A stretch of 64,000 nt of DNA from Thermovirgaceae bacterium. GTDB taxonomy: Bacteria > Synergistota > Synergistia > Synergistales > Thermovirgaceae. Made by a program: the position numbers and the translations under genes. The DNA lies in assembly GCA_035448245.1 (NCBI GenBank), contig DAOTIQ010000001.1, positions 40,568 to 104,567 of the forward strand, written 5' to 3'. Shown here piece after piece: positions 3,792-63,957 of this stretch (within the stretch, counting starts at the first letter, position 1; each line of letters starts with the position of its first letter). The notes beneath the pieces are model-generated. The model saw nothing but the letters and a program-made list of their open reading frames with translations. It did not search any database and was not told the origin of the DNA.

Positions 3792-5005
3792 CAGGCCTTT
3801 CCCCCTTTCAGTGCCTCTATCATTTTTACGGCTCGCAGATTCTGTCCCACATCATGCACCCTCACAAGGGGGACTTCCTTCATGGCGCAGAAGGCCGAAA
3901 TGGCAAGGGTTCCCTCAAGGCGCTCGGAAGGTTTGTCCAGTTCCAGTACCCTTCCGATAGAACTCTTCCTTGAGTGTCCGACGAGAATCGGTCTTCCGAG
4001 GGTGGAAAAGGAATCGATCTGTGCAATTACCTCAAGGCTCTGGCTGGAATTCTTGGAAAAACCGATCCCCGGGTCCAGGATCACGCTCTGTGGCGAGATC
4101 CCCGCTTCTGCGGCGGACCTTATACGGTCGAAGAAAAAAGCCGTTATTTCCCCGATCAGATCCCTGTAGGCATATTTTTTGTGCATCCCGTCAGGGACTT
4201 CCATGGCATGCATAATAACGACAGGATTCCCGGTCCTGGCCAGGAGAGGGAACATCAGTGGGTCGAAAATGCCACCGGAAATGTCGTTAATAATGTCTGC
4301 TCCCGCCTCGATAGCCTCGGAAGCCGTGTCTGCCCGGTAAGTGTCGGCGGAGATCAACGCCTCCGGAACCCTTTCCCGCACAGCTTTTATTGCCGGTATC
4401 AGCCTGTCTCGTTCTTCGGGACCCGATAGAGGTGTGGATCCGGGTCTTGTCGATTCGGCCCCCAGGTCTATAATGTCCGCTCCTTCCATGTCCATTTTCT
4501 CGGCCATGTCCGCGCATGCCTCCGTGGTGGATGCCCTGCTTCCGCTGTAGAAGGAGCTGTCGTTGACGTTAATTATTCCCATTATGGCCGTTCTGCCGCC
4601 CAGATCAAGGGGAGGTCGTCCCGGAAGCGGGATCTCCCACTTCCTGATATTGGCAGCTCCGGTGGCGGCTTCAAGTTCTTCTCTGACGACATCCAGGCCC
4701 CAGTAGGGCATGGCTCCAAGTTTTTCGAGAAGGCTACTGAAGACTTTGCGGGTTCCCATCAATATTACATCGCACCTGGCTACAGATCCGTCGATCGCCC
4801 CCCGGTGGACTATGGCGTCACCGTCTCTGGAAAGCATTTCCTGCTTAAGGGCGTTGGCGGCACGGAAATCGATATCTGCAAGGTGAAAGGCCAGTATCTC
4901 TCTTTTCTGATCGAAATAGGGCATACTGCGGACATCGGCCCCTGTAAGGGAGAGGGCCTTGCGCAGGTCATGGTCGTTCTGGAGATGGAAGCGGTATACG
5001 GTCAT
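3791..5005 (-). CDS. folP: dihydropteroate synthase with an extra N-terminal domain of about 140 aa
   Basis: The C-terminal 260 aa (IMGIINVNDSSFYSG...GADIIDLGAESTRPG...ISADTY...INDISG...ILDPGIGF.K) is a pterin-binding DHPS. ATG5005 (MTVYRF) is preceded by AGGAGAG. The longer ORF to 5374 overlaps the upstream gene and was trimmed. Confidence 0.88.
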   Translation of the reverse strand: MTVYRFHLQNDHDLRKALSLTGADVRSMPYFDQKREILAFHLADIDFRAANALKQEMLSRDGDAIVHRGAIDGSVARCDVILMGTRKVFSSLLEKLGAMPYWGLDVVREELEAATGAANIRKWEIPLPGRPPLDLGGRTAIMGIINVNDSSFYSGSRASTTEACADMAEKMDMEGADIIDLGAESTRPGSTPLSGPEERDRLIPAIKAVRERVPEALISADTYRADTASEAIEAGADIINDISGGIFDPLMFPLLARTGNPVVIMHAMEVPDGMHKKYAYRDLIGEITAFFFDRIRSAAEAGISPQSVILDPGIGFSKNSSQSLEVIAQIDSFSTLGRPILVGHSRKSSIGRVLELDKPSERLEGTLAISAFCAMKEVPLVRVHDVGQNLRAVKMIEALKGGKA

Positions 5006-23736: not shown

Positions 23737-25131
23737 ATGGCAAGACCGATTCAGCCCGAACCCTTCAGGATCAAGATGGTGGAGCCCGTTACCGTACCGG
23801 ACTCGGGACAGCGAGAGGAAGCTCTGAAACGCGGACATTTCAACATGTTCGGATTGACATCCAGAGATATCTATATCGATCTCCTCACGGATTCCGGCAC
23901 CGGAGCAATGAGCAAGCAGCAATGGGCTGCCCTGATGAGGGGTGACGAGGCCTATGCGGGCGCCGACAGTTTCTTTGCCCTCAAGGATTCCGTCAGGGAA
24001 GTGCTTGGTTTCGATCATGTGATCCCCACTCACCAGGGGCGCGCGGCGGAGAATGTGGCATTTGGTACACTGGTCAAAAAAGGTGACATTATCCCCTTCA
24101 ATATGCCCTTCGATACCACAAGGGCCCACGTCTTCAACATGGGAGCCGAACCGGTAAACTGTGTGATCGACGAAGCCTTCGACCCCAGCTCCCTTCACCC
24201 CTTCAAGGGGGATGTGGACATTGCCAAACTCGAGGAAGTTATCAAAAAATACGGCAAGGACAGGATACCCCTAATCATGATTACGGTCACCAACAACTCC
24301 GGCGGTGGACAGCCCGTAAGCCTCTCCAGCCTCAGAGCTGTCTCGGAGGTCGCGAAACGGGAGGGAATCCCAGTATTCCTGGATGCCGCGCGCATGGCCG
24401 AGAATGCCTATTTCATCAAGGAACGAGAGAAGGGTTTCGCTGAGATGTCGGTTTCCCGGATCCTCCGGGAGATGATGGATACCGCTGATGCCATTACCGT
24501 GTCCTGCAAGAAGGATCCCCTGGTCAATATTGGCGGAATGATCTGCTGCAGGACGGAGGAGATGTACCAGAAACTCCTTCCCAGAGTGATCCTTTTCGAA
24601 GGTTTCGCGACCTACGGGGGGCTGGCCGGAAGGGATCTCGAAGCTCTTGCGGTTGGCCTCAGGGAGATGACCGATGAGCAGTATATGGCCCACAGGATAG
24701 CCCAGGTCAGATATCTCGGCGATATCCTGGACGACGGAGGAGTCCCGTTCGTAAAACCTGCCGGAGGACACGCCATATTCATCGACGCGGCGGCTTTCCT
24801 TCCCCATATTCCCCAGAAATGCTATCCCGCCGATGTTCTGGGTATTGAGATATACCGAGAGGCCGCAATAAGGGGGATCGGTCTGGGGGCCCTTGCTTTC
24901 GCGACTGAGGACGAGACCACCGGAGAGATAGTCTACCCCAGGCTGGAACTCTACAGACTGGCGATCAACAGGAGGACCTACACAAACAGCCACATGGAGT
25001 ATGTTGGAGAATCAATAGTAAACGTCTACAGGCGAAGGGATTCCATCCGTTACGGTCTTCGGGTTGCATACGCTCCTCCTGTGAAAGGGCTTCACCATTT
25101 CCTTGCTCATCTGGAACCTTTTTCGCTTTAA
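23737..25131 (+). CDS. tnaA: tryptophanase / tyrosine phenol-lyase family beta-eliminating lyase (PLP)
   Basis: Carries EPFRIKMVEP, DLLTDSGTGAMS and the PLP-lysine block SCKKDPLVNIGG, about 464 aa. Trp versus Tyr specificity cannot be decided by eye. Confidence 0.85.
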   Translation: MARPIQPEPFRIKMVEPVTVPDSGQREEALKRGHFNMFGLTSRDIYIDLLTDSGTGAMSKQQWAALMRGDEAYAGADSFFALKDSVREVLGFDHVIPTHQGRAAENVAFGTLVKKGDIIPFNMPFDTTRAHVFNMGAEPVNCVIDEAFDPSSLHPFKGDVDIAKLEEVIKKYGKDRIPLIMITVTNNSGGGQPVSLSSLRAVSEVAKREGIPVFLDAARMAENAYFIKEREKGFAEMSVSRILREMMDTADAITVSCKKDPLVNIGGMICCRTEEMYQKLLPRVILFEGFATYGGLAGRDLEALAVGLREMTDEQYMAHRIAQVRYLGDILDDGGVPFVKPAGGHAIFIDAAAFLPHIPQKCYPADVLGIEIYREAAIRGIGLGALAFATEDETTGEIVYPRLELYRLAINRRTYTNSHMEYVGESIVNVYRRRDSIRYGLRVAYAPPVKGLHHFLAHLEPFSL

Positions 25132-27965: not shown

Positions 27966-29804
27966 ATGATGGGAGTGAGTTTTTTGAGACCCAGAACGAT
28001 TTTGGCCATGATGTTACTGGTTCTATTTATGGGCCTCTGTGGTGTTGCGAATGCCCGCGATATACCCGCAGAGCTGGCGAGATCGCTGAGGGAAGCACCT
28101 TCCCTGGAATCTCTCGGCTCTGGCCAGGGCCTTGTGCTCCTTCGCGATATCAGCTACAGACTGCTTGCGGACGGAAGAATGGAGAGAACCACCCTATGGT
28201 TCATCCATGAAGAGAAGGGGCTGCCCGACAGCTGGAGAAAATGGGAGGTCGTTGTCCCCGAAGGAGGTGAGGCCTCCGTCGCCGAAGCTGGTCTGTATGA
28301 CCCCGGATCAGGGAAGATACAGTATCCCCTTATACCCAGGGAAACATCCAGAGACGGGGCTTCCCTTATCGAGGTAAGGGTTCCCAACAGCCTGGACGGA
28401 AATATTTTTGTCCTGTCCTACAGGCAGGTCTTCCCCACAAGGATGAACATCGAGGACTCTGTCCTAGTGGATCTTGATATTCCCCAGTGGGAACAGAGGA
28501 TAACCCTGAAGGTTCCCTCTGGCACTCTTCCTGAGTGGAGCGGAGAAGGTATTCCGGACCCGCAGGTGGAAAAAGGGAGTTCGACCGACAGTTATTCCTG
28601 GTCGATAGTCAATACACTGGCAAGGGAAAACGGCACCCTTTCCGCCGAACCGGGAAGGGTCCTCGTCCTGAGCCTTCGGAAGGGGCTTCGTTACTCCCTG
28701 GCAGAGGCGATGTCCGTGGCTGATTCAATCGGGGTGTCACCTCCTTCGCAGGTGGTCTCCATGTTGTCTGACCAGAACAGGACCAGGGGGGGAGAACGGG
28801 TCATTGATTTCGTCAACGACCCTTCCCTGATCATCAGAGGCCTCCCCGAGATCCTGGCAAGGCCGGTTGAACTTATTCCGGCCGAAGGACCCTGGACAGA
28901 ATGGGAGGCAGCATTCCTGCTGGCGAACTGGCTTAAGAAAGCCGACTGGGGGGCTGATATACTCTGGGAGGCGCGAACGACCCTTAGGGACGATTCGCCC
29001 GCTACGATAACATCTTTGAGAAAGCCGGTTCTTGCACTTACTCCTCCGGGGGGAAAACAGTTCATGTTCGAGATCGGTCAGGGGGTTAAACCGGGACAGG
29101 TGCCGCCCCGTCTCTGGGGAAGGACTCTATATTCTCTTGACGGGAACACAGTACTGAGACGTCAGATACCGGCAGGAGGGCCCGCAGACCACAGGCTTTC
29201 CTTTAACTGGAAGCTGGGTCTCTCACCGGAAGGCTTTGCAGAGGGAGATCTGGTCATCAATGTCAGGGGAGCCTGGGTCGACACCATCTCCGCCGGGAAT
29301 CTTCCCGATGAGAAACAGGCCCTGGATATGCTCATGGCTTTTGGATGGCCATCCACGCCTGGAATGCCCGGAGGTGAAGCTGTTGTGGAACCTGCTGGAA
29401 GCGGGTTCAGGATCACTCTGCCGGTCAGGGCACAGATGGGAATACCCTCAGGTGAGGGTTTGCTGATGAGGATGCCTTCCGCTCTGATGCCATGGCAGAT
29501 GATCATTGCCGAGAAGGGGGTTTCAGGGGGGATAAGGTTCCCCTTTGTTTATGAACAATCGATAGAAATAGAACTTCCGGAAGGCTTTGAAGTCATGGTT
29601 CTTCCGGTCCTCAGGCCTGTGGAAGCAGGCTCTGTGAAAACAGGAGAGAGCCTCAGGGTCAAAAAAGGCAGGACTCTGGTCGGAGAGCAGAAGGTGGTTA
29701 TATCGTCGGCAAGAATGGATGATCAGACCAGGCAAGTTTTTGCCAACTCCATCCGGCAGGGTCTGGGCTGGTCGGGTATCACCGTTCCAATGAGGAAAAG
29801 GTAG
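27966..29804 (+). CDS. large hypothetical exported protein (about 610 aa)
   Basis: Signal peptide ...LLVLFMGLCGVANA|RD and no catalytic motif recognised. A vague DUF3857-like feel at the N-terminus is unverified. Confidence 0.55.
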   Translation: MMGVSFLRPRTILAMMLLVLFMGLCGVANARDIPAELARSLREAPSLESLGSGQGLVLLRDISYRLLADGRMERTTLWFIHEEKGLPDSWRKWEVVVPEGGEASVAEAGLYDPGSGKIQYPLIPRETSRDGASLIEVRVPNSLDGNIFVLSYRQVFPTRMNIEDSVLVDLDIPQWEQRITLKVPSGTLPEWSGEGIPDPQVEKGSSTDSYSWSIVNTLARENGTLSAEPGRVLVLSLRKGLRYSLAEAMSVADSIGVSPPSQVVSMLSDQNRTRGGERVIDFVNDPSLIIRGLPEILARPVELIPAEGPWTEWEAAFLLANWLKKADWGADILWEARTTLRDDSPATITSLRKPVLALTPPGGKQFMFEIGQGVKPGQVPPRLWGRTLYSLDGNTVLRRQIPAGGPADHRLSFNWKLGLSPEGFAEGDLVINVRGAWVDTISAGNLPDEKQALDMLMAFGWPSTPGMPGGEAVVEPAGSGFRITLPVRAQMGIPSGEGLLMRMPSALMPWQMIIAEKGVSGGIRFPFVYEQSIEIELPEGFEVMVLPVLRPVEAGSVKTGESLRVKKGRTLVGEQKVVISSARMDDQTRQVFANSIRQGLGWSGITVPMRKR

Positions 29805-38488: not shown

Positions 38489-40600
38489 CTACTTTCCCAT
38501 CAACATCTCGCAGTAGGTCGGGTATGGCCAGAACCCGGTCGAGACGATCACCTCTGATGCATCACACATCCCCCTGATGCCGTCCATGAGGGGGATTGCC
38601 TTTTCCGTCAGCACGGAGGCCCGCTGTTCCAGGTCCAGCGACGATAGACTGTTCCGTAGAGACGCCATTTTTGCAACTCCGTCAAGCAGCCTTTCCTTCA
38701 TCCTGTAGAGTTCCTCGATATGTTCCTGCCAGTGTGAGGAGGAACCCGCCCGCGCGCTTTCAGGGACATGGGCCAATGCTGTGCCTTCCGATGTGATATG
38801 ACTGGAAATTGCCGGAAGAATGCCGTTTCGGACCATACTCTCCATTACGTTCATTTCTATATCGAGGGTCTTGACATACTGCTCAAGGCGGGTTTCGTAG
38901 TACCCTTCGATCTCTCTTTCGGTAAAGATGCCGAGTTTTGAAAGAAGTTCCCTGTGTTCCGGCACGAGGAAAAGCGCAAGGGCTTCCGGCGTGCTGTGAG
39001 CTATCGGCAGTCCCCTTTTTTGTGCCTCATCGTGCCACTCGGGTGAATAGCAATTACCCTCGAAACGTATGTTCCTGCTTTCCATCGCGGCATAACGGAT
39101 CGCGTCGAGGGCGGCATCGGCAACATCGGTCTCCCCTATCCTGGATTCTATCATGTTGGCAAGTTCTTCCATTCCCCATGCCCACATTGAAAGAAGCATG
39201 GTCATAGGTCCGGCCGGAGACTGGGATGATCCTGGGGCCCTGAACTCGAATTTGTTACCCGTGAAGGCTATGGGAGCGGTTCGGTTCCTGTCGGTGTTAT
39301 CCTTGAGAACATCGGGAAGACGATTCAGGCCAAGGTCGATAAAGGCCTTGGAAGGCATGTTTTCCGGTATTCCTTCCTCGACCCTTTCGAATATTCCCGA
39401 AAGCACATCTCCGAGAAAGACACTCATGATGGAAGGCGGGGCCTCGTTCCCTCCGAGGCGCCTCATGTTTCCCGGCGTGGCGACCGAGGCCCTCAGAAGC
39501 CCTCCATACCTGGAAATACCCAGAAGAAGAGCTGAAACCAAAGTCAAAAACTGGATATTTTTTCTCTGGCTTGATGAGGTTTTGAGGAGGTTTCGACCCT
39601 CGCTATCCATTAGGGAAAAGTTGAGATGCTTGCCGCTTCCGTTGATCAGGGCAAAAGGTTTTTCGTGAAGCATGAGCCTGAAGCCATGGCTGGAAGCTAT
39701 CTGCCGCATCTGCTCCATGAGGATCTGGTTCTGGTCGACGGCAAGGTTGGCCTCGGTGAACTGGGGAGCGAACTCAAACTGGCACGGTGCTACCTCGTTA
39801 TGCCTTGTTTTCAGGACCATGCCCAGCGAGCACATACGTTTGTCGACATCTTGCATGAAAGCCAGTACCCTGGACGGAATCGAACCGAAGTAGTGGTCCT
39901 CCATCTGCTGACCCTTGGGGGTAGGGGCTCCCAGTAGAGTCCTGCCGCAGTACTGGATATCGGGTCTTTTTACCGCACAGGATTCGTCAATAAGAAAGAA
40001 CTCCTGCTCTGCTCCCATTGTAGCGCGGGTCCACTTGACACTCCTGTTTCCGAAAAGTTTCAGCACCCGCAATGATATGTTCTCTATCCGCGAAAGAGCT
40101 CTCAGCAGCGGAGTTTTCATATCCAGAGGCGTACCATCGTTGCTTATGAAGACAGAAGGAATGCACAGGGTTCCCCCATGTTCCGCCGGGACGACGAATG
40201 CCGGACTTGTGGGATCCCAGGCAGTATAGCCTCTTGCCTCAAATGTCGATCTCATACCCCCAGAGGGAAGTGATGATGCGTCTGGCTCGCTCTGGATAAG
40301 GTCGGCCCCCCCAAATGAATCCAGGGGTATCCCGTGTTCGTCGATGGTAAGAAAGGCCATATGTTTTTCCGCGGTCAGGTCCGTTCTCGGGTGGAACCAG
40401 TGAGTATAGTGGGTAGCACCACAGGAAACTGCCCACTCCTTGATGGCTGTCGCGACTATCTCCGCAACGTGGAAATCCATCTTTTCTCCGCCCGAGATAG
40501 CCTCCTGAAGTTTCTGGTAAACGTGTTTGGGGAGTCGTTCCCTCATGGCCCTGTCGTTGAAAACGTTGCTCCCGAATGTCTTTGCCGGAGATTCCCTCAT
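38489..40600 (-). CDS. glnN: glutamine synthetase type III
   Basis: About 703 aa. The N-terminal FGSNVFNDRAMRERLPKHVYQKL...THYTHWFHP matches GSIII, and a GS catalytic core is present. ATG40600 is preceded by AAGGGGTGA; the longer ORF to 40753 runs into the GntR gene. Confidence 0.9.
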   Translation of the reverse strand: MRESPAKTFGSNVFNDRAMRERLPKHVYQKLQEAISGGEKMDFHVAEIVATAIKEWAVSCGATHYTHWFHPRTDLTAEKHMAFLTIDEHGIPLDSFGGADLIQSEPDASSLPSGGMRSTFEARGYTAWDPTSPAFVVPAEHGGTLCIPSVFISNDGTPLDMKTPLLRALSRIENISLRVLKLFGNRSVKWTRATMGAEQEFFLIDESCAVKRPDIQYCGRTLLGAPTPKGQQMEDHYFGSIPSRVLAFMQDVDKRMCSLGMVLKTRHNEVAPCQFEFAPQFTEANLAVDQNQILMEQMRQIASSHGFRLMLHEKPFALINGSGKHLNFSLMDSEGRNLLKTSSSQRKNIQFLTLVSALLLGISRYGGLLRASVATPGNMRRLGGNEAPPSIMSVFLGDVLSGIFERVEEGIPENMPSKAFIDLGLNRLPDVLKDNTDRNRTAPIAFTGNKFEFRAPGSSQSPAGPMTMLLSMWAWGMEELANMIESRIGETDVADAALDAIRYAAMESRNIRFEGNCYSPEWHDEAQKRGLPIAHSTPEALALFLVPEHRELLSKLGIFTEREIEGYYETRLEQYVKTLDIEMNVMESMVRNGILPAISSHITSEGTALAHVPESARAGSSSHWQEHIEELYRMKERLLDGVAKMASLRNSLSSLDLEQRASVLTEKAIPLMDGIRGMCDASEVIVSTGFWPYPTYCEMLMGK

Positions 40601-40749: not shown

Positions 40750-41406
40750 TCAAAAAGGTTTTCTGAGGGCTTTCATGGACAGGTGAATATGATCTCTCAT
40801 AAGCCGTTCGGAGAGTTTTTCGTCGTGCATGGCAAGTGATCTTACTATCTCGCGATGTTCGTCCAGGCTGGGGTTTGTATCAAAATCGAAGAATGATTCG
40901 AAAAACACCATGTAAACGTAGGTCCTTGACAGAATGTTGCCGACATAATCGGCAAGGATCCTGTTCTTTGAAGACCCCGCGATTATTCTGTGGAAGCGGA
41001 TATTAACCTCAAGATATTTTTCGAGATCTCGTGAGGAAAAGATAACCTCCTCCTCTTCTATCGCTTCGTTGAGCATGCATATCTGCAACGGGGTAATGAA
41101 ACGTGCGGCGCGTCTCACCGAGATGCTTTCAAGTTCCTCTCTGACCTCGTAACCTTCGGTCATCTCCTCCAGAGACGGATTTGCCAGCCTCGCTCCGCTG
41201 TTGGGTGTAATCGTGACAAGTCCTTCGGAGGCGAGCATTCTGAGGGCCTCCCTCACAGGGGTGCGACTTACGGAAAGACTTTTGGCCAGAGAGGCTTCGG
41301 GAAGCCTCTGTCCCGGAAGCAGTTCTCTGGCGAAAATCCTTTTTTTTAATTCCAGGTAGACCTGTTCAGAAGCTGTAGCGTTCTCTCCATTAGTAATACC
41401 TATCAT
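40750..41406 (-). CDS. GntR family transcriptional regulator (FadR/FCD subfamily)
   Basis: N-terminal wHTH ...LPEASLAKSLSVSRTPVREALRMLASEGLV plus an all-helical FCD-like C-domain. Confidence 0.88.
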   Translation of the reverse strand: MIGITNGENATASEQVYLELKKRIFARELLPGQRLPEASLAKSLSVSRTPVREALRMLASEGLVTITPNSGARLANPSLEEMTEGYEVREELESISVRRAARFITPLQICMLNEAIEEEEVIFSSRDLEKYLEVNIRFHRIIAGSSKNRILADYVGNILSRTYVYMVFFESFFDFDTNPSLDEHREIVRSLAMHDEKLSERLMRDHIHLSMKALRKPF

Positions 41407-41474
41407 CCTGGTTCCCCCGATGCAGTTTGCCTGATATTTTACCTTTAAAAAACCGGTGGGCGGTATTTCAGATG

Positions 41475-41525
41475 TTGACTGAAATGGATATGTGCGTTTA
41501 GTATACGTAGTATACCACGTATACT
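41475..41525 (+). promoter_or_regulatory. promoter (TTGACT-18 nt-TAGTAT) plus triple GTATAC operator-like array
   Basis: TTGACT at 41475-41480. AGTATACGT-N8-ACGTATACT spans 41500-41525 and contains GTATAC at 41501, 41510 and 41519 (9-nt phasing). It covers the -10 to leader region of the SDR operon and sits in the divergent region with the GntR gene. Confidence 0.5.
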
Positions 41526-41540
41526 AAAAGGAGGTATCCC

Positions 41541-42281
41541 ATGTATCCGGATCTTTCGGGAAAAAGGATTGTTATAACAGGAGGAGGGAGCGGGATAGGC
41601 CTTGCAACGGCCCGACGGTTCGCCAGAGAGGGGTCCAGGGTCTGTGTTATAGACAGGGACAGTTCTTCTCTGGATCGTGCAAGAGAAGAACTTGCCGGTG
41701 AGGGCCTTTTCTTGTGTGCCGATGTTTCTGACTCATCATCGGTCGATACGGCTTTTGGCCGGATCGACGAATCAATGGGAGGTCTTGACGTACTGGTTTC
41801 CAACGCGGGAATAAGCGTCAGGAAAACATTCAGGGAGATAACCTATGAGCAATGGTCCAAAGTTCTGGAAGTCAATCTCGGAGGAATGTTCCTCTGCGCC
41901 AGGGAAGCCGCGGCGAGGATGAAAGACGGTGGGGTGATCCTGATGACCGCGTCCACCAACGGAATGGAGGGGCATCCCTTTTACGCAGACTATAACTCCT
42001 CCAAGGCTGGCGTCATTCTTCTTGCCAAGACCCTGGCGCTGGAATTCGCCCCGCGCATTCGCGTTAACAGCGTCAGCCCCGGGTATGTCCTGACCCCGAT
42101 GCAGAGGGCCGAGTACACACCGGAAATGCTTGAAAAGGTCAACGAAAAGATCCCTTTCAGGCGCCACGCTGCACCAGCGGAGGTGGCGGCTCTATTCGCC
42201 TTCCTGGCCTCCAGTGAAGCATCATACATTACAGGAGCGAACATTCCGATAGATGGCGGAGAGACCGCCGGACTTCAATAG
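41541..42281 (+). CDS. SDR family oxidoreductase (classical, NAD(P)-dependent)
   Basis: TGGGSGIG, NAG and the YNSSK catalytic motif. AAGGAGG RBS. Confidence 0.88.
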   Translation: MYPDLSGKRIVITGGGSGIGLATARRFAREGSRVCVIDRDSSSLDRAREELAGEGLFLCADVSDSSSVDTAFGRIDESMGGLDVLVSNAGISVRKTFREITYEQWSKVLEVNLGGMFLCAREAAARMKDGGVILMTASTNGMEGHPFYADYNSSKAGVILLAKTLALEFAPRIRVNSVSPGYVLTPMQRAEYTPEMLEKVNEKIPFRRHAAPAEVAALFAFLASSEASYITGANIPIDGGETAGLQ

Positions 42282-42294
42282 GGGGTTTGTGAAT

Positions 42295-43062
42295 ATGGAG
42301 CACGAAGAATTATTCAGACTGGATGGAAGAACGGCTGTCATAACTGGAGGAGCATCGGGGATAGGTCTCGGGTGCTGCAAGTTTCTATCAATGATGGGTG
42401 CCTCGGTCGTCCTTGCCGATCTGGACGAAGGTAAAGGGCGCACGGCAGAGGGCGAGATCGGGGGAAGATCTCTTTTCGTCAAGTGCGACGTAACCAGTGA
42501 TGAAGACTGTCGCAACATGGCATCCGCTGCCGTAGCACGTTTCGGAAGGGTGGATTATCTCGTAAACTGCGCGGGTGTTATCAGGAGGAAGAACGTTGTG
42601 GACCTTACAGAGAAGGAGTGGGACCTGACCCTCGATGTGACCCTTAAGGGGGCTTTCCTTGCCTCGAAGTATCTCATCCCCTTTATGGCTCGAATCGGAG
42701 GGGGGAGTATTGTGAATATAGCTTCGGGATGGGGCGTAAAGGGAGGTCCCAGGGCAGTGTCGTACTGTGCGGCAAAAGGTGGGATTATCAACATGACCAG
42801 GGCGATGGCTATAGATCATGGTCATCAGAATATCAGGGTCAATTCCGTTTCCCCGGGGGATACCGATACTCCTCTTCTGAGAGATGAAGGAAGGCAGTTG
42901 GGTGTAGATGAGGATAAATGGCTGGCCGAAAGCGCGGAGCGCCCCCTGAGAAGGCTTGGCCGTCCAGATGATATTGCCATGGCTGTTTATTTTCTGGTAA
43001 GTGGCCTTTCCCCGTGGATAACGGGGGCAAACCTGGTCGTCGATGGCGGCGGGATCGCCTAG
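42295..43062 (+). CDS. SDR family oxidoreductase (classical)
   Basis: TGGASGIG, NCAG and YCAAK motifs. ATG42295 was chosen; the upstream part of the ORF overlaps the previous gene. Confidence 0.88.
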   Translation: MEHEELFRLDGRTAVITGGASGIGLGCCKFLSMMGASVVLADLDEGKGRTAEGEIGGRSLFVKCDVTSDEDCRNMASAAVARFGRVDYLVNCAGVIRRKNVVDLTEKEWDLTLDVTLKGAFLASKYLIPFMARIGGGSIVNIASGWGVKGGPRAVSYCAAKGGIINMTRAMAIDHGHQNIRVNSVSPGDTDTPLLRDEGRQLGVDEDKWLAESAERPLRRLGRPDDIAMAVYFLVSGLSPWITGANLVVDGGGIA

Positions 43063-43087
43063 AGATCGTGTACAGGAGGTTTTGAAG

Positions 43088-44479
43088 ATGGAAGAAAAAA
43101 AGAGAGTTTATCCATATATCCCCAACTCCGAACCCGGGGTCAGGGAGACCATGCTTCGGGAGATAGGGGTTGAAACAATCGATGATCTTCTTCCGGATGT
43201 CCCTGACTCGATCCGGATGAAGGGAAGGATGAACCTTCCTGATCCCCTGTGTTCCGAACCGGACCTCAGGCGTCATGTTGAAGGTCTCCTCTCAGAGAAC
43301 GTGACCTGCGGGGAGTGTCTCAGTTTTCTGGGCTCTGGCTGCTACGACCATCATGTTCCAGCCGTAGTCGACGAAATAATCGGACGGTCGGAATTTCTGA
43401 CAGCTTACGCTGGCGAACCCTACGAGGACCACGGGAGGTTTCAGGCGCTTTTCGAATACCAGAGCATGATGTCCGGACTCATGGATTTTGATGTGTGCAA
43501 CGTGCCTACCTACGACGGCTCCCAGGCCGCGGGTACCTCTCTGAGAATGGCGTCAAGGATCACCGGCAGGAAAAAGGTTCTCCTCGCGGGGAACATGAAC
43601 CCCGACAGGATGAGGATAGTGAAGACCTATATCGATGAGGCCCTTTCTCCAGAGTTGATCTCATGGTCGCCCGATACGGGCCTTGTCGACCTGCAGGATC
43701 TGGGGCGTAAACTTGGGCCCGACGTCGCGGCAGTATATATTGAGAATCCCTCATACCTGGGTGGTATAGAACACAGGGGAGCGGAAATAGGCGCCATGAC
43801 CCACGACGCGGGCGCGATCTTTATCGTCTCACCCGACCCCTCTTCGTTGGGAATTCTTCAGCCACCTTCGAGATACGGAGCCGATATTGCCTGCGGTGAT
43901 ATCCAGTCCCTCGGGATCCATATGAACTTCGGGGGAGGAGTGGGTGGATTTATATGCACCAGTTCCGACAGAAGGTTTGTTGAAGAATATCCCTCGCGGC
44001 TTTTCGGGATCGCGCCTACCAGCAAGGGGGAATGGGGCTTTGGAGACGTAGCCTGGGAGAGGACTTCCTTCGCGAACAGGGAGACTGCAAAGGAATTCGT
44101 TGGAACCCATGCCGCCCTCTGGGGAATTGCCGCCGCGGTATACCTTGCGTCTATGGGGCCTCAAGGAATGGCGGACCTGGGGAAGGTGATAACCAGGCGA
44201 TCACTTTATGCAAGGAAGGTGCTCGGAGATCTTCCAGGAGTGTCTACTGCCAGGCCTTCCGCTGTTTGTTTCAAGGAGTTTGTTGTCGATTTTGCTGGCA
44301 CCGGCAAGACTGTGGCCGAGATCAACGGGAAATTGCTTGAAAAAAGGATATTTGGGGGAAAGGATCTTTCTTCTGATTTTCCGGAGCTTGGCCCTTGTGC
44401 TCTGTACTGCGTGACCGAGAAGATAACCGTGGATGATATTGACAGGCTTGCATCTGCCCTGGCTGAGATAATTGCCTGA
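43088..44479 (+). CDS. glycine dehydrogenase (decarboxylating) subunit 1-like protein, diverged
   Basis: GcvPA-like length and blocks (YIPNSE...MLREIGV..IDDL, FLGSGCYDH.VPAVVD). The usual TAYTPYQPE(I/V)SQG block reads TAYAGEPYEDHGRFQ. AGGAGG lies 7 nt before ATG43088. Confidence 0.75.
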   Translation: MEEKKRVYPYIPNSEPGVRETMLREIGVETIDDLLPDVPDSIRMKGRMNLPDPLCSEPDLRRHVEGLLSENVTCGECLSFLGSGCYDHHVPAVVDEIIGRSEFLTAYAGEPYEDHGRFQALFEYQSMMSGLMDFDVCNVPTYDGSQAAGTSLRMASRITGRKKVLLAGNMNPDRMRIVKTYIDEALSPELISWSPDTGLVDLQDLGRKLGPDVAAVYIENPSYLGGIEHRGAEIGAMTHDAGAIFIVSPDPSSLGILQPPSRYGADIACGDIQSLGIHMNFGGGVGGFICTSSDRRFVEEYPSRLFGIAPTSKGEWGFGDVAWERTSFANRETAKEFVGTHAALWGIAAAVYLASMGPQGMADLGKVITRRSLYARKVLGDLPGVSTARPSAVCFKEFVVDFAGTGKTVAEINGKLLEKRIFGGKDLSSDFPELGPCALYCVTEKITVDDIDRLASALAEIIA

Positions 44480-44512
44480 CAGAAAATGCCTGCGAGAAAG
44501 GAATGACGGACA

Positions 44513-46078
44513 ATGACTGAGAATCTCAGGCCCTTTCACCATATGAGGTGGAATGAGCCCATAATCTACCAGTTGAGCGAGCCGGGACAGAGGGGGATCC
44601 TCGTTCCTGAGGCCGAGGAGAAGATCACCGCGATGGCTGGTGACGGGATGTCCCTGATACCCTCCGCAATAAGGCGAAGCGATCTTCCGGATCTTCCGGA
44701 AATGGCACAACCCCAGGTGGTAAGACATTTCAACCGCCTTTCCCAGGAGAACCTGGGTGCCGACTCTAATATCGATATTGGCCAGGGAACCTGCACAATG
44801 AAGCACAGCCCGAAGATCAACGAAACTTTTGCCCGATCCCCAAAGATAACGGACCTTCACCCTTATCAGGATGTGTCTACAGTGCAGGGGATTCTCGAGA
44901 TTTTCTACCGGATGGAGGAGATCTTCAGGGAGATCTCCGGGCTTGATTTCTGCAGTGTCCAGCCGGGGGGTGGCGCTCATGGGGCCCTCGCGCTGGCTTC
45001 GATAGTCAGGGCGTGGCATCGTGACAGGGGAGCGAACGAAACCAGGGACGAGGTTATCACGACTCTCTTCTCTCATCCGGCCGATGCTGCCGTGCCAAAG
45101 GTGAAGGGTTACAAGGTGATCGTCCTTCCCCCAGACGAGGAAGGCCTGCCTGACCTGGAGGCTTTCAGGAGCGTTGTCTCCAATAGAACTGCGGCGATCT
45201 TTTTCACCAACCCCGAGGATACGGGCATCTTCAACGCCAGGATCAGGGAGTTCACAGATCTGGCCCATCAACACGGAGCCCTTTGCTGCTATGACCAGGC
45301 AAATGCGAACGGCCTCCTTGGGATAGCGAGGGCAAGGGAAGCCGGTTTTGACATGTCTTTTTTCAACCTTCACAAGACTTTCTCCTCTCCTCATGGGTGC
45401 GGTGGCCCCGCAACGGGCCTGATAATGGTAGACGAAAAACTTGCTTGCCATCTGCCTGTGCCGGTGGTCAAAAAAGACGAGAACAGGGGGCTCTTTTACC
45501 TGGACTGGAATCTTCCGAAAAGTTGCGGGAAAATTAAGGATTTCTTCGGAGTAGCTCCCGTTGTTGTCAGGGCCTATGCCTGGATAATGAGTCTGGGTGC
45601 AGAAGGTCTTGAAGAAGCCTCGAGGACCGCTGTGCTGAACAATAATTACTTCATGAAAAAAATGCTCGACATAAGAGGATGTTCCCTGAGTTACCCGAAT
45701 CATCCTTCAAGGGTGGAACAGGCTCGCTACAGCTGGGGAAAAATGAAGGAGGAGACGGGTTTCGGAACCAACGATGTGCAGAGGCGGATCGCTGATTTCG
45801 GTACTCACTACTGGGGGAGTCACGAGCCCTGGATAGTTCCGGAGCCTTTCACCATCGAGCCAAGCGAATCCTACTCGAAGAGCGATATGGATGAATACCT
45901 GGAGATAATGGCCAGGATTTCCAGGGAGTGCTACGAAGAGCCCGAGGTAATTGCTCATGCTCCCCATAACAGTACCATCCACCATATAGACCACGATTAT
46001 CTTGATGACCCTGACAAGTGGGCTCTGACGTGGAGGGAATACAACAAAAAGTACGAAGGTTATTTCAGGCGGAAATGA
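44513..46078 (+). CDS. glycine dehydrogenase (decarboxylating) subunit 2-like protein, diverged (PLP)
   Basis: GcvPB-like blocks are present: LPE(M)AQPQVVRHF.RLSQ.N, GTCTMKHSPK, and the PLP-lysine block NLHKTF. The SAHGTNPA and PHGGGGPG blocks are altered to FSHPADAA and PHGCGGPA. Confidence 0.75.
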   Translation: MTENLRPFHHMRWNEPIIYQLSEPGQRGILVPEAEEKITAMAGDGMSLIPSAIRRSDLPDLPEMAQPQVVRHFNRLSQENLGADSNIDIGQGTCTMKHSPKINETFARSPKITDLHPYQDVSTVQGILEIFYRMEEIFREISGLDFCSVQPGGGAHGALALASIVRAWHRDRGANETRDEVITTLFSHPADAAVPKVKGYKVIVLPPDEEGLPDLEAFRSVVSNRTAAIFFTNPEDTGIFNARIREFTDLAHQHGALCCYDQANANGLLGIARAREAGFDMSFFNLHKTFSSPHGCGGPATGLIMVDEKLACHLPVPVVKKDENRGLFYLDWNLPKSCGKIKDFFGVAPVVVRAYAWIMSLGAEGLEEASRTAVLNNNYFMKKMLDIRGCSLSYPNHPSRVEQARYSWGKMKEETGFGTNDVQRRIADFGTHYWGSHEPWIVPEPFTIEPSESYSKSDMDEYLEIMARISRECYEEPEVIAHAPHNSTIHHIDHDYLDDPDKWALTWREYNKKYEGYFRRK

Positions 46079-47217
46079 GTGAGGCCGTGGCAGAAAATAT
46101 CAGACGCCTTGGCCTGATAGTCAATCCCGTTGCAGGGATGGGGGGATCCGTCGGGCTGAAGGGGACCGATGGATTGGATATTCTCGAAAGAGCCATTGCG
46201 CTAGGGGCCAAACCCGGGGCGAACCGGAGAGCCATGGAAGCTCTTGAAAGGCTTTGTGATTACCGGAAGCAATTGGAGATAGTGACATTTCCGGGCGAGA
46301 TGGGGGCCACCGTATCAAATAGGGCGGGTTTCAGGCATTCAGTTTTGAGGGGGACAAGCCGCCTTGAAAGGACGTCATCAGAAGACACAGTCAAGGCGGC
46401 AGGGCTTTTGATGTCCGGCGGTGTTGATATTATTCTGTTCGCCGGGGGTGACGGGACGGCGCGGGATATAGTATCGGCAGTAGGAACAGGTATACCGGTG
46501 ATAGGAATACCGGCCGGTGTCAAGATACACTCCCCTGTTTTTGCAAGGAATCCTTCAGCAGCCGGAGAACTGGCCAGGCTTTTCCTGTTTGGTCCCCCGA
46601 CAGGGCTTAGGGAACTGGAGGTTATGGATATCGACGAAGAATCCTTCAGGCAGGGTCGTGTCAGTACGTCCCTGTTTGGATATCTCATGGTTCCCTACGA
46701 GAAGAGCCATCTGCAGGGGGGGAAATCTGGAAGCCCAAGGAGCGAGGCGGTGGAAGTTGACGGCGCGGCAAGGGAGGCAGTTTCGCGGATGCTTCCCGGG
46801 GTTCTGTACCTGGTAGGTCCCGGATCGACCACTGCCTCCCTTATGGGGATCATGGGCTGTCCATTCTCCCTCCTTGGCGTTGATGCTGTCAGGGATGGAA
46901 AGATTCTGGGGAAGGATCTTTCAGAAAGCGAGATCCTGGAAATGATCGAGCCCGGCAATACACGTATCATCATCACAGTAATAGGTGGACAGGGTTTTAT
47001 CTTCGGGAGAGGGAATCAGCAGATCGGCCCGGGGGTAATAAGGATGGTTGGCAAGAAAAACATTACAGTTGTTGCGGCTCCTTCCAAGCTCCGTTCCCTT
47101 CCGGGAAGGTCCATTTTCGTTGATACGGGCGATACCCAGCTTGACGAGGATCTTTGCGGCTACATGAGGGTCATTACCGGTCCCTCAGAGGAGACCCTTG
47201 TGAGCGTCAGAAGATAA
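46075..47217 (+). CDS. ATP-NAD kinase family protein, AcoX/COG3199-like
   Basis: LGLIVNPVAGMGGSVGLKGTDG and GGDGTARD motifs. ATGA overlap with the preceding gene. Confidence 0.75.
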   Translation: MSEAVAENIRRLGLIVNPVAGMGGSVGLKGTDGLDILERAIALGAKPGANRRAMEALERLCDYRKQLEIVTFPGEMGATVSNRAGFRHSVLRGTSRLERTSSEDTVKAAGLLMSGGVDIILFAGGDGTARDIVSAVGTGIPVIGIPAGVKIHSPVFARNPSAAGELARLFLFGPPTGLRELEVMDIDEESFRQGRVSTSLFGYLMVPYEKSHLQGGKSGSPRSEAVEVDGAAREAVSRMLPGVLYLVGPGSTTASLMGIMGCPFSLLGVDAVRDGKILGKDLSESEILEMIEPGNTRIIITVIGGQGFIFGRGNQQIGPGVIRMVGKKNITVVAAPSKLRSLPGRSIFVDTGDTQLDEDLCGYMRVITGPSEETLVSVRR

Positions 47218-47227
47218 CAAAAAAGTC

Positions 47228-47254
47228 GCGGCGGGCATGAACCAGGCCCGCCGC
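47228..47254. terminator. bidirectional intrinsic terminator
   Basis: 9-bp stem gcggcgggc / gcccgccgc with a 9-nt loop. An A6 tract lies upstream (a T-run for the minus-strand gene) and TTTC downstream. Confidence 0.75.
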
Positions 47255-47267
47255 TTTCAACCGGGAG

Positions 47268-47816
47268 CTAAAGAGCGCGGCCCCTTTCTTCGGCTTTTTT
47301 CACCCAGTCTCCTTTCAGGATATCGCCCTTCTCGTGGACCCCGCAGGCAAGCAGTGGTTCTGTCCGTTGAATGCCCAGAAGATCACATGAGGTTCTGAAG
47401 GAGAAAAGCAGGCCTTCGAAGGCATCGGTCCTGTCGTCGCCAGCCGTGGCTACGAGCAGCGCCTCTTTGCCCCTCAGGTCCCAGGCAGCGTTTTCATGAA
47501 GAAAGGGAAGGAATCGGTCCCAGACAGGTTTTATCTGGCTGCTCCACGTATACCAGTAAAGAGGAGTTGAGAAAACGATGACGTCTGCCTGCCTGATCCT
47601 GTCGTGAATACCGTTCATGTCGTCGACGATGATGCAGGGATTGCCCCTGGACCAGCATTTTCTGCAGTCGATGCATCCCCCGAGAGTCATTCCGTTAAGT
47701 CTGATCTCCGATATTTCGTTCCCCTTAGACCCGGCTCCACGAAGGACCGCTTGCGTGAGGGTCTCGCTGTTTCCTCCAGGCCTGGGGCTTCCCAAGAGTG
47801 CAAGAATGCGTTTCAT
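47268..47816 (-). CDS. iron-sulfur flavoprotein (Isf)-like / NADPH-dependent FMN reductase family protein
   Basis: Flavodoxin-like start MKRILALLGSPRPGGNSE plus the compact cysteine motif CIDCRKCWSRGNPC (CX2CX2CX6C). Confidence 0.75.
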   Translation of the reverse strand: MKRILALLGSPRPGGNSETLTQAVLRGAGSKGNEISEIRLNGMTLGGCIDCRKCWSRGNPCIIVDDMNGIHDRIRQADVIVFSTPLYWYTWSSQIKPVWDRFLPFLHENAAWDLRGKEALLVATAGDDRTDAFEGLLFSFRTSCDLLGIQRTEPLLACGVHEKGDILKGDWVKKAEERGRAL

Positions 47817-48715
47817 GCGTATTCCTCCTCATAAAATTGCCGAAATTTGTCGAATATCCCGGCTATTTCCCTTTTGGTAGTTTCATCCGCATCGAGAAGG
47901 GGCGGCCTTACCGGCCCGCCGTACAGCCCGGCGTGGTCCATTGCCGACTTGAGGCCCGGAACCCCGAATCTCGCCGTCACAGCCTGATTGATCCCGATCA
48001 TTGACAGTTGTATCCTTCTGGCCCTGTCGAGATTGCCCTTTTTGAAGGAAGCGAAAATATCCCTGCATGGGCCGGCGAAAAGATTGGCGACTCCCATGGT
48101 CCCGCCGGAACATCCTACTGCCAGGGATGGAAGAAAATAACTGCCCGAACCCGCAAAGACACCGAATCCTTCCGGCGCGTCCCTGCAGATGGTTGCTATC
48201 TGGACAATATCGGCGGAACTGTCCTTGATACCTATTATGTTACCGTGAGTCGCAATTTTTGCCACAAGTGAAGCTCCGAGGTTGACCCCGGTATTTGAAG
48301 GCATGTTGTAGAGGACAAGAGGAGCGGGTGAAGAATCCGCGATTTCAAAAAAGAATTTCTCGAGGCTTTCCGTAGAGTTCTGCCCCTTGTAATAATGTGG
48401 GGGAAGCAGGAGAAGGGCGTCTACTCCCGCACGGGAAGCCTCGATGGCAAGTTCCGCGGTTTCCCTGGTGGATGGGCAGTGGACACCTGCTATTACCTTG
48501 ATCTTCCCTTTGGCCAGTGCTGCGGAAGCACCGAAAAGATCGACTCTTTCGCGGAAAGAGAGAAGGGGGCATTCCCCATTGGATCCGCTCACCACAATCC
48601 CGTCAAGAGGAAGGTTCATCCATTTGCGAAAGTTAAACTCCAGGTTTTTATGGTCTACGTTGCCGGATCGGTCGAATGGTGTCGGAACAGGCGCGTAGAT
48701 GCCTTCCAGTTTCAT
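47813..48715 (-). CDS. dihydrodipicolinate synthase/N-acetylneuraminate lyase family class I aldolase
   Basis: DapA-family blocks GIVVSGSNGE, VIAGV, the YY.KG region and the Schiff-base region IIGIKDSS. ATGA overlap with the downstream flavoprotein gene. Substrate unknown. Confidence 0.8.
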   Translation of the reverse strand: MKLEGIYAPVPTPFDRSGNVDHKNLEFNFRKWMNLPLDGIVVSGSNGECPLLSFRERVDLFGASAALAKGKIKVIAGVHCPSTRETAELAIEASRAGVDALLLLPPHYYKGQNSTESLEKFFFEIADSSPAPLVLYNMPSNTGVNLGASLVAKIATHGNIIGIKDSSADIVQIATICRDAPEGFGVFAGSGSYFLPSLAVGCSGGTMGVANLFAGPCRDIFASFKKGNLDRARRIQLSMIGINQAVTARFGVPGLKSAMDHAGLYGGPVRPPLLDADETTKREIAGIFDKFRQFYEEEYA

Positions 48716-63697: not shown

Positions 63698-63756
63698 ATA
63701 AGCGTTGACCTTTGTTCGCTATCATGAGAAAATAACCAAAGAGTTACTGGATGAAG

Positions 63757-63957
63757 GCTGTGAGAGATGCTCCCCGCAGGTCTGTCCCAGGGCGGGGGGA
63801 GCCGAAGGGGCAAGCTCCTAAAGGGGCGAAACTCTCAGGCGAAAGGATCGCAGCTGGACAAGTCTCTGGACAGGCGCGTAGAGGCGCTGGAGGCTCCGGG
63901 CAAGTTCCCGGGTCTGCTGGACAGAGAACCCACCTATTTGCAAAATAGGGGGTTTTT
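63757..63957 (+). promoter_or_regulatory. glycine riboswitch: canonical aptamer 1, degenerate aptamer 2, terminator hairpin
   Basis: Aptamer 1 (63757-63854) has P1 GCUGUG/CGCAGC, GAGAG, GCCGAAGGGGCAA and ACUCUCAGGCGAAAGGAUCG. Aptamer-2-like unit (63863-63927) has UCUCUGGACAG...CUCCGGGCAAG...GGACAGAGA. The hairpin CCTATTT-gca-AAATAGG plus GGGTTTTT spans 63933-63957. The regulated gene lies beyond nt 64000. Confidence 0.8.

Follow-up and report, generated by a model that had tools for sequence, protein, structure and literature searches.

We analysed a stretch of 64,000 nucleotides (nt) from a Thermovirgaceae bacterium (contig DAOTIQ010000001.1), hereafter the window. This work concerns a string of five genes in it. 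They encode two short-chain dehydrogenases/reductases (SDR1 and SDR2), two proteins that resemble the subunits of the pyridoxal phosphate (PLP)-dependent glycine decarboxylase or P-protein (PA and PB), and a protein related to NAD kinases. Most likely, this module serves a pathway that has not been characterised, and the glycine-cleavage label given by annotation pipelines is wrong. Coordinates follow the window numbering. The genes were taken from an open reading frame (ORF) map with a check of start sites.

40750-41406, minus strand: GntR/FCD regulator, divergent from the operon (Pfam GntR 71 bits, FCD 81.9 bits)
41475-41504, plus strand: promoter-like site TTGACT-18-TAGTAT, sigma-70-like (promoter scan)
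41501-41524, plus strand: three GTATAC half-sites with 9-nt spacing, overlapping the -10 region; candidate GntR operator (from the sequence)
41541-42281, plus strand: SDR1 (Pfam adh_short_C2 213 bits)
42295-43062, plus strand: SDR2 (Pfam adh_short_C2 205 bits)
43088-44479, plus strand: PA-like subunit (Pfam GDC-P 196.6 bits)
44513-46078, plus strand: PB-like subunit (Pfam GDC-P/GcvP2_C/Aminotran_5)
46075-47217, plus strand: NAD-kinase-like gene (Pfam NAD_kinase, N-terminal 75.6 bits, C-terminal 49.4 bits)
47228-47254, no strand: GC-rich hairpin between the convergent operon end and an FMN-reductase-like gene (fold energy -21.8 kcal/mol)

The five genes are co-directional (41541-47217). They are separated by gaps of 13, 25 and 33 nt, and the PB and kinase-like genes share an ATGA stop/start overlap. 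A preliminary description of this DNA had reported this layout, and it was right. It had also placed the operon divergent from a GntR/FCD regulator, which the ORF map and Pfam confirm. Shine-Dalgarno-like sequences lie upstream of all four non-overlapping operon starts. The same description saw a strong bidirectional terminator at the operon end. A perfect 9-bp GC hairpin is there (GCGGCGGGC-N9-GCCCGCCGC), but only the minus strand has a good T-run; the plus-strand tail reads GCTTTCAACC. The consensus terminator scan did not call this hairpin because its loop is 9 nt.

The PA and PB subunits

PA and PB have the general properties of a P-protein. Against the NCBIfam GcvPA model, PA reaches 470.4 bits (cutoff 364). 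Against the GcvPB model, PB reaches 532.7 bits (cutoff 441). Both pass the equivalog cutoffs, and annotation pipelines therefore name them GcvPA and GcvPB. A sequence search of the PDB matched PA to 1wyt_A (234.8 bits) and PB to 1wyt_B (300.9 bits). The E-values of the two subunits against the Thermus P-protein chains were 1.5e-88 and 1.7e-68. PA is a homolog of the N-terminal half of the P-protein and carries no PLP lysine. PB retains the PLP-lysine block NLHKTF, as had been observed. Its Lys288 (Schiff base), Asp261 (pairing with the pyridine nitrogen) and His188 (stacking) are conserved.

The AlphaFold2 (AF2) model of PB was used only for fold assignment. Its predicted local distance difference test score (pLDDT) is moderate (64.2), and the N-terminal 118 residues are unreliable. 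The best Foldseek matches of the PB monomer are P-protein beta chains, with template modelling (TM) scores of 0.68-0.75 and 34-35% identity. Sphingosine-1-phosphate (S1P) lyases come next, and then cysteine desulfurases. Together with NLHKTF and the Pfam GDC-P and GcvP2_C matches, this places PB in the P-protein fold with its PLP lysine. The pair has the same two-gene alpha/beta architecture and fold as Thermus thermophilus GcvPA/GcvPB (1WYT/1WYU), and the PLP lysine, Asp and His are kept.

These similarities favour a simple alternative. PA and PB might be a diverged but genuine split glycine decarboxylase, with its T-, H- and L-proteins encoded elsewhere and with the SDRs and the kinase as fortuitous or only regulatory neighbours. 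The cutoffs passed, the P-proteins as best fold and sequence matches, and the gcvPA/gcvPB names given by PGAP in sister clades (see below) all fit this explanation. Nevertheless, we consider it unlikely, and the motifs around the cofactor are the first point against it.

The following motifs, invariant from Thermus to human, are all replaced here: TPYQPE(V/I)SQG in alpha, and PLGSCTMK, AAGA(H/Q)GE, SAHGTNPA, YDGANLNA and PHGGGGPG in beta. In PB, SAHGTNPA becomes FSHPxDAA, PLGSCTMK becomes GQGTCTMK, YDGANLNA becomes YDQANANG, and PHGGGGPG becomes PHGCGGPA. In PA, TPYQPEVSQG becomes AGEPYEDHGRF. The window PB contains FFNLHKTFSSPHGCGGPA and TLFSHPADAA, and the window PA contains TAYAGEPYEDHGRFQ. 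Thermus and human P-proteins show TAYTPYQPEVSQG, SAHGSNPA/SAHGTNPA and PHGGGGPG at the equivalent positions. Across the clade, the PA motifs EFLTAYaGePYeDHGRF and GFGDV..RTSF..R...KE..GT stand in place of TAYTPYQPEVSQG and GFILTLQAREQYIRRAKAKSNITT. FSHP..AA-type and PHGCGGP-type motifs occur in all top-120 PB homologs. So the earlier claim that near-invariant blocks are rewritten in both subunits holds. The quoted motifs are all present, and the replacements, which adjoin PLP-contacting residues, are conserved in the clade.

We compared the PB sites of 40 clade members with those of 30 canonical proteins. Both groups conserve 61 sites. At another 18, each group conserves a residue of its own; 20 sites are conserved in the canonical proteins alone and 89 in the clade alone. 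The conserved-but-different sites (clade/canonical) include G90/P, Q91/L, T93/S, G153/A, S187/A, P189/G, D236/T, Q262/G, G267/A, C296/G, W357/Y, N377/A and W434/P. PB has about 520 amino acids (aa) with a conserved C-terminal extension, compared with about 475 aa in canonical proteins. Overall, the enzyme has kept its cofactor scaffold, but the sequence around its reaction centre is rewritten. From the motif replacement and the genomic context, we infer that the substrate may be other than glycine, or the carrier other than the lipoyl-H protein.

The Cys of PHGCGGP was considered as a catalytic feature common to all kinase-linked clades. This was rejected. The motif is confined to the window clade, and the sister clades read PK(S/A/G)G.GGPA.

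Phylogenetic placement

A neighbour-joining (NJ) tree was built with 50 sequences, 481 columns and 100 bootstraps. The window clade has a support of 100/100 and a plasmid-borne sister clade 96/100. All non-canonical clades jointly are separated from the canonical split and fused P-proteins with 100/100. PB is therefore placed outside the canonical, characterised P-proteins.

The scores of profile models agree with the tree. With NF003346 (GcvPB), canonical proteins reach 676-724 bits and non-canonical ones 492-575. With TIGR00461 (fused GcvP), canonical GcvPB proteins reach 381-400 bits and non-canonical ones 199-238. With canonical PB at 676-724 bits, the GcvPB cutoff fails to separate the clades. 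The separate clade, which the preliminary description had suspected, is thus supported by the tree and by a gap of about 150 bits in the GcvPB model. Both results speak against a genuine split glycine decarboxylase.

In a search of 1.84 billion cluster representatives, full-length relatives scored 654 and 602 bits. A middle tier followed at 417-494 bits, and the orthodox family scored at most 318 bits. Several other non-canonical clades also belong to the GcvPB superfamily, and the variant motifs differ from clade to clade (P0123, P0125, P0126, P0127, P0133; L103, L105). One of them, P0133, is without the Schiff-base lysine.

Glycine-cleavage partners and the glycine riboswitch

The window contains no gcvT, gcvH or lpd gene. 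On this point, Pfam searches of the ORFs and the Pfam tables precomputed for the same DNA agree with the earlier statement. No GCV_T, GCV_H, Pyr_redox_dim or lipoate-ligase family was found in the 64 kb by Pfam. A tblastn search of the window with an approximate E. coli GcvH query gave chance matches only. Among the clustered neighbours of about 100 related neighbourhoods, there was likewise no gcvT, gcvH, lpd or lipoate ligase, apart from one Lpd-like gene in Dethiosulfovibrio. The genomic association with gcvT and gcvH, expected of GcvPA/PB, is therefore absent from the window and from the related neighbourhoods. Compared with canonical P-proteins, PA and PB of the module are never beside gcvT/gcvH and have a kinase-fold gene and SDRs instead.

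The Dethiosulfovibrio gene is a point in favour of the split glycine decarboxylase. In Dethiosulfovibrio peptidovorans (L007, 4320-5723), a gene for a 467-aa Lpd-like protein (Pyr_redox_2 and Pyr_redox_dim) precedes the module by about 2 kb. The other neighbourhoods yielded nothing similar.

The window also has a glycine riboswitch near its end:

63751-63860, plus strand: glycine riboswitch (Rfam 56.9 bits)

Downstream of it come grdX, thioredoxin, grdE, grdA, grdB, grdC and grdD (L010, 11457-18376). This riboswitch therefore governs glycine reductase and not gcvT/gcvH, which is a further point against a split glycine decarboxylase. We rejected the possibility of gcvT/gcvH behind it. The preliminary description had named gcvT/gcvH elsewhere, for example behind this riboswitch, together with an unconserved neighbourhood, as the outcome that would reduce the locus to a split glycine cleavage system. 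This outcome did not occur: the grd operon lies behind the riboswitch, and the neighbourhood is conserved.

The call of GrdA is split into two pieces (49 and 109 aa) and that of GrdB is short, a pattern expected where in-frame UGA codons encode selenocysteine. The grd operon is followed by genes for a Na+/alanine symporter and for an alanine racemase.

Conservation of the module

We scanned one genome per species, for 185,579 species, with a clade-specific peptide pattern. At least 599 stretches matched, and at least 593 of them encode a relative. Neighbours were counted in the best 80 loci, and PA adjoins PB in all of them. In 51 of these loci the flank was enough to count the genes within 8 kb of PB. 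They contain PA (51), an SDR2-type gene (49), an SDR1-type gene (34), the kinase-like gene (43) and a GntR gene (10). The complete five-gene set is present in 31. Across loci, the identity to the window proteins is 56-86% for PB, 52-77% for PA and 45-67% for the kinase-like protein. SDR1 orthologs have 54-78% identity, and SDR2-type matches have 52-84% in all but a few loci.

The module occurs in Synergistota, Atribacterota, Bacillota, Thermotogae, Chloroflexota, Acidobacteriota, Korarchaeota, Bathyarchaeia and Heimdall-/Hodarchaeota. Look-ups of exact proteins gave the order SDR-PA-PB-kinase-like in Dethiosulfovibrio peptidovorans DSM 11002, in a Korarchaeum metagenome-assembled genome (MAG) and in a Bacillota MAG. 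A Hodarchaeota contig, which starts inside PA, carries PA, PB and the kinase-like gene. Taken together, the look-ups, the pattern scan and the counts in 51 loci establish that the SDR-SDR-PA-PB-kinase neighbourhood, proposed earlier for a conservation test, is conserved across phyla and in both domains. Such neighbours are not fortuitous, contrary to what a split glycine decarboxylase supposes.

Clustering of the neighbouring ORFs revealed no other widely shared family. Some neighbours are specific to lineages: NhaC-type and MFS transporters, class-III aminotransferases, M20 peptidases and, in Bacillota, sigma-54 activators. Many archaeal loci have no regulators or transporters and lie among housekeeping genes. 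The ATGA-type translational coupling of PB and the kinase-like gene is found in other loci too. No fusion of the two genes was found among the long homologs.

Plasmid-borne and other sister clades

A tblastn search of annotated plasmids with the kinase-like protein returned 13 records. In some of these plasmids, the kinase-like gene immediately precedes genes with the PGAP names gcvPA/gcvPB. They come from Rhodococcus qingshengii, R. jostii RHA1 (pRHL1), Sphingomonas psychrotolerans, Gemmobacter fulvus, Paracoccus aminophilus, Roseicitreum antarcticum and Antarctobacter heliothermus. The PB of this sister clade is 43-46% identical to the window PB. Rhodococcus and alphaproteobacterial hosts normally have a chromosomal fused GcvP. 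The plasmid-borne copies in these hosts thus argue against a split glycine decarboxylase.

The neighbours of the plasmid loci are APC, TTT or ABC transporters, LysR or TetR regulators, and an SDR or a zinc-dependent alcohol dehydrogenase (Zn-ADH). They also include an acyl-CoA synthetase, an ArgE/DapE deacylase or an amine oxidase. A P0125-type locus contains Zn-ADH, SDR, PA, PB, the kinase-like gene, a Pot-type (polyamine-type) ABC transporter, a glutamine synthetase-like gene and a PuuD-like gene. A P0127-type locus combines PA and PB with a TRAP transporter and a class-III aminotransferase; only about 250 bases of its contig lie past PB, too few to show a kinase-like gene. The kinase-like homologs of Paradesulfitobacterium, Fervidobacterium and SAR202 are also beside PA-PB. 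In these sister clades, on the plasmids and in other metagenomic lineages, the dehydrogenases vary (SDR, Zn-ADH, AKR), and so do the transporters (APC, NhaC, TTT, Pot-type ABC). The comparison therefore defines a constant core of the kinase-like protein, PA and PB, with a variable oxidoreductase and transporter.

The kinase-like protein

The kinase-like protein has the invariant motifs NPxAGxGG, GGDGTARD, GIPxGVKxHS, EVxDxDE and IGGQGxxxGRGNQQ. Its homolog alignment has no conserved Cys, and Pfam found no lipoyl or biotinyl domain. Because no Cys is conserved, the protein was rejected as a dithiol carrier that replaces lipoamide. It matched no NCBIfam model, including those of NAD kinases, and has no sequence relative in the PDB. 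The AF2 model has a pLDDT of 84.6. In Foldseek, only about 190 N-terminal residues align, to DgkB-type diacylglycerol (DAG) kinases (E about 4e-4, TM 0.21-0.35). Given its motifs and fold, the protein appears to be a true phosphotransferase and to belong to the NAD-kinase/DAG-kinase superfamily. No member of its own family is known to have been solved or characterised.

It shares with NAD kinases and DgkB the invariant GGDGT and both Pfam NAD_kinase domains, and its N-terminal domain superposes on DgkB with the low TM scores given above. It differs in its own invariant motifs, NPxAGxGG and IGGQGxxxGRGNQQ. It also exceeds a typical NAD kinase in length by about 90 residues. Thus the motif and the two-domain arrangement of NAD kinases are present, but a curated model or a solved structure that would match is not.

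In their sources, homologs are called, for example, "predicted polyphosphate/ATP-dependent NAD kinase" or "ATP-NAD kinase family protein". PGAP names some sister-clade copies "NAD(+)/NADH kinase". These names, the Pfam matches to both NAD_kinase domains and the existence of stand-alone homologs could indicate a plain NAD(H) kinase. It would tune the local NADP(H) for the dehydrogenases, without any phosphorylated intermediate. However, both SDRs carry the NAD-type and not the NADP-type beta-2 signature (see below). Neither an NCBIfam NAD-kinase model nor a NAD kinase in the PDB is matched, and the similarity to DgkB is N-terminal only. A tight coupling to PB is also unexpected for an enzyme of cofactor supply. 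We regard this explanation as highly improbable.

On the strength of such source names, we tentatively assign the protein to COG3199, a NAD-kinase-like family to which AcoX presumably also belongs. Ever since the aco operons were sequenced, AcoX has lacked an assigned function. The preliminary description treated AcoX in the same way, and the literature bears it out: AcoX, encoded next to acoA/acoB, was still "a protein of unknown function" in 2022 (PMC10107126). Both AcoX, encoded upstream of the acetoin dehydrogenase E1 genes (acoXABC), and the protein studied here are uncharacterised and adjoin a cofactor-dependent enzyme that cleaves C-C bonds (PMC10107126). In contrast, the partner here is a PLP enzyme of the P-protein fold and not a thiamine pyrophosphate (TPP)-dependent E1, and its vicinity has no gene for an E2 or a lipoyl domain. 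Consistent with this, no acoA, acoB or acoC was found beside the kinase-like gene in the window or in related loci.

This resemblance suggests another explanation, in which PA and PB are a lipoate-independent decarboxylase and the COG3199 protein is its obligate acceptor, activator or scaffold, as AcoX would be for the TPP-dependent E1 of acetoin dehydrogenase. The ATGA coupling in this and other loci, the persistence of the kinase-PA-PB core while dehydrogenases vary, and the position of AcoX beside acoA/acoB with no known function (PMC10107126) are in agreement with it. However, the protein has neither a conserved Cys nor a lipoyl/biotinyl domain to carry an intermediate, and it invariably keeps GGDGT, the catalytic motif of genuine kinases. 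The relation to AcoX is a presumed one. The gene is not within 8 kb of PB in 8 of the 51 loci, and homologs occur alone in Aeromonas and Pseudoalteromonas (44-48% identity) or with a different PLP fold in Peptoclostridium. This explanation is quite unlikely. The earlier expectation of an obligatory partner must also be corrected: with 43 of 51 loci, the kinase-like protein is a frequent partner and not an obligatory one.

The Peptoclostridium case is on plasmid EAL2_808p of Peptoclostridium acidaminophilum (L094, 8992-11068). There, a kinase-like homolog (44% identity) overlaps the start of a gene for a 328-aa HisC/CobD-family PLP protein, which is below both equivalog cutoffs. On gene order and homology, it is a putative second kind of pairing between a kinase-like protein and a PLP enzyme. 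Characterised members of the HisC/CobD family act on phosphorylated substrates.

The dehydrogenases

Both SDRs show the classical features of the family, the TGxxxGxG cofactor motif and Ser...YxxxK. SDR1 has TGGGSGIG, YxxxK and an Asp ending beta-2 (VIDRD), of the NAD-preferring type. SDR2 has YCAAK and LADLD, also of the NAD-preferring type. An acidic residue at the end of beta-2 is typical of NAD-dependent classical SDRs.

The gene count fits one biosynthetic alternative exactly, with two NAD-type SDRs, one decarboxylase and one kinase. It would be a redox-neutral route to an amino-alcohol phosphate. For example, threonine or serine would pass through SDR oxidation, decarboxylation, SDR reduction and phosphorylation to give aminopropanol phosphate (for cobamides) or phosphoethanolamine. 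The many archaeal loci amid housekeeping genes, without regulators and transporters, also fit, as does the kinase homolog coupled to a CobD/HisC-family protein in Peptoclostridium. Conversely, bacterial loci have GntR, LysR, TetR or sigma-54 regulators and uptake transporters, which are typical of catabolism. Neither cobamide genes nor a B12 riboswitch are nearby, and SDR1 is missing from one third of the loci. Moreover, 2-amino-3-oxobutanoate decarboxylates spontaneously, so a large PLP enzyme would be superfluous in such a route. We think a biosynthetic role very unlikely.

The regulator and its candidate operator

The regulator has an N-terminal winged helix-turn-helix and a C-terminal FCD domain by Pfam, as in FadR-type proteins. 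No NCBIfam equivalog model reaches its cutoff with this protein. The GntR genes found in 10 of the 51 loci are orthologs (53-77% identity) in the same divergent position, and all are from Synergistota or Atribacterota.

The triple GTATAC array is located in the spacer between the GntR gene and the first SDR gene. It is present at the same position in L014, L016, L037, L041 and L029 (the last from Atribacterota), that is, in five loci of two phyla. Degenerate copies exist in L007, L017, L021 and L024. The array is a plausible candidate operator for the GntR/FCD protein, and its sequence and position would fit a substrate-responsive repression.

In L014, a related Thermovirgaceae MAG, the spacer between GntR and SDR1 (about 4830-4910) has about 40 nt duplicated in tandem (GGAGATCGCAGATCCGCCTACCGGCGGACA...), which the window lacks.

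Proposed pathway

We propose that the five genes, as an operon under GntR control, encode a self-contained pathway other than glycine cleavage. Taken jointly with the mechanism below, this reading has a probability of roughly 0.55. Its parts differ in strength. We are fairly confident that the function of the operon differs from that of the housekeeping glycine decarboxylase. That the kinase-like protein acts on a metabolite of the pathway is evenly balanced. The whole kinase-PLP-SDR scheme, exactly as described here, is tentative and held with low confidence.

The pathway is probably catabolic and for a small hydroxylated amino compound. The bacterial module looks catabolic because substrate-responsive regulators and amino-acid-type or amine-type transporters adjoin it. 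We infer a chemistry of kinase priming, PLP-dependent decarboxylation or elimination, and NAD-linked dehydrogenases. PA and PB would build an alpha2beta2 PLP enzyme of the P-protein fold. The kinase-like protein would phosphorylate a hydroxyl of the small hydroxylated amino compound or of a pathway intermediate. PA2PB2 would then form an external aldimine and cleave at C-alpha, by decarboxylation and possibly with loss of phosphate. A lipoyl-H-protein acceptor would not be involved in this cleavage. The two SDRs would oxidise or reduce hydroxyl and carbonyl groups before or after it. Finally, the GntR/FCD protein would act as a repressor that senses the substrate or an intermediate.

The logic of this scheme comes in part from Peptoclostridium, where the PLP protein coupled to a kinase-like homolog is from a family that acts on phosphorylated substrates. 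It also follows known pathways with a kinase and a PLP enzyme. Examples are the 1-amino-2-propanol dehydrogenase, kinase and phospho-lyase of the Mycobacterium RMM system, PduX with CobD, sphingosine kinase with S1P lyase, and hydroxylysine kinase with its phospho-lyase. Sphingosine kinase shares the catalytic fold of DAG kinases. The module has the same gene logic: one or more dehydrogenases, a kinase for a hydroxyl group, a PLP enzyme of fold type I and, in many cases, a permease of the amino-acid type. By structure, S1P lyases rank directly behind P-proteins among the relatives of PB. The RMM microcompartment type is listed as 1-amino-2-propanol-utilising (PMC6787980). However, none of these systems is orthologous to the module. 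Their kinases are of the APH, GHMP or sphingosine-kinase type, and their PLP enzymes are a class-III aminotransferase, CobD or S1P lyase. Judged as an analogy, the resemblance is one of logic only.

Several points weigh against the proposed pathway. Any phosphate-binding site is hypothetical. Glycine keeps some claim as the substrate, since the equivalog cutoffs are passed and the nearest solved relatives are genuine P-proteins. We know of no P-protein-family enzyme described with a chemistry other than glycine decarboxylation. Genes for the H-, T- and L-proteins could lie in the genome outside the window, and Dethiosulfovibrio has its Lpd-like gene near the module. The kinase-like gene is missing near PB in the eight loci mentioned. 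Its stand-alone homologs mean that the kinase may have a general function, not specific to a pathway. Lastly, the PDB and NCBIfam matches of the SDRs are generic, with many enzymes equally close, and indicate no substrate.

Novelty and significance

A full-text literature search found no description of this module; subscription literature was largely outside the search, so an earlier description is possible. The module is a P-protein-type PLP enzyme with a new conserved set of partners and probably a new chemistry. Whatever the mechanism, the label "gcvPA/gcvPB" on these genes is an unsafe basis for inferring glycine cleavage. The labels rest on a paralog without nearby T/H genes. Metabolic reconstructions of Asgard archaea, Bathyarchaeia, Korarchaeota, Synergistota and others may therefore wrongly assign glycine cleavage, or the reductive glycine pathway, to these lineages.

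Until now, a single reaction has been associated with the P-protein fold. A large and strongly conserved sister family, with rewritten active-site motifs and a constant kinase-fold partner, suggests a second chemistry. The widespread and tightly coupled kinase-PA-PB partnership also offers an experimental handle on the AcoX family. The cultured carriers Dethiosulfovibrio peptidovorans DSM 11002, Clostridium hydrogeniformans DSM 21757 and Bacillus gaemokensis KCTC 13318, plus Rhodococcus jostii RHA1 for the sister clade, are tractable hosts.

A broader idea is doubtful but would have consequences. The COG3199 kinase-fold protein and the P-protein-like enzyme might form an unrecognised, lipoate-independent two-component system, distributed from Asgard archaea to Actinobacteria, with a new reaction of the P-protein fold. 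It could be, for example, the kinase-primed decarboxylative cleavage of an abundant hydroxylated amino compound. If true, this system would give the AcoX/COG3199 family its first function. In the same case, many calls of "glycine cleavage" or "reductive glycine pathway" in uncultured lineages would rest on a misannotated paralog.

Neighbouring genes

Three genes flank the operon and its regulator:

38489-40600, minus strand: type III glutamine synthetase, directly downstream of the GntR gene and co-oriented with it
47268-47816, minus strand: flavodoxin-like FMN reductase (Pfam FMN_red), convergent with the operon
47813-48715, minus strand: DHDPS/NAL-family protein (Pfam DHDPS; dapA model 175 bits, below its cutoff of 206)

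The arrangement of glutamine synthetase and GntR is retained in the related Synergistota loci L014, L016 and L037. A co-transcription of glutamine synthetase and the regulator could tie the operon to nitrogen status. The FMN reductase and DHDPS genes are kept next to the operon in five related Synergistota loci only, and their association with it is weak.

DHDPS/NAL-family genes, often with a flavin reductase or a FAD oxidoreductase, also adjoin kinase-PA-PB in Synergistota and on plasmids of Rhodobacterales. Another is beside a lone kinase-like gene on a haloarchaeal plasmid. Such recurrences are at L111 12405-13340, L112 13395-14312 and L096 11095-12036. The DHDPS-family genes near the module in other phyla were considered as orthologs and rejected, with an identity of only 24-27%.

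Elsewhere in the window, there is a beta-eliminating lyase gene of the tryptophanase/tyrosine phenol-lyase type (23737-25131, plus strand). A 612-aa ORF without a Pfam match is located at 27966-29804 on the plus strand.

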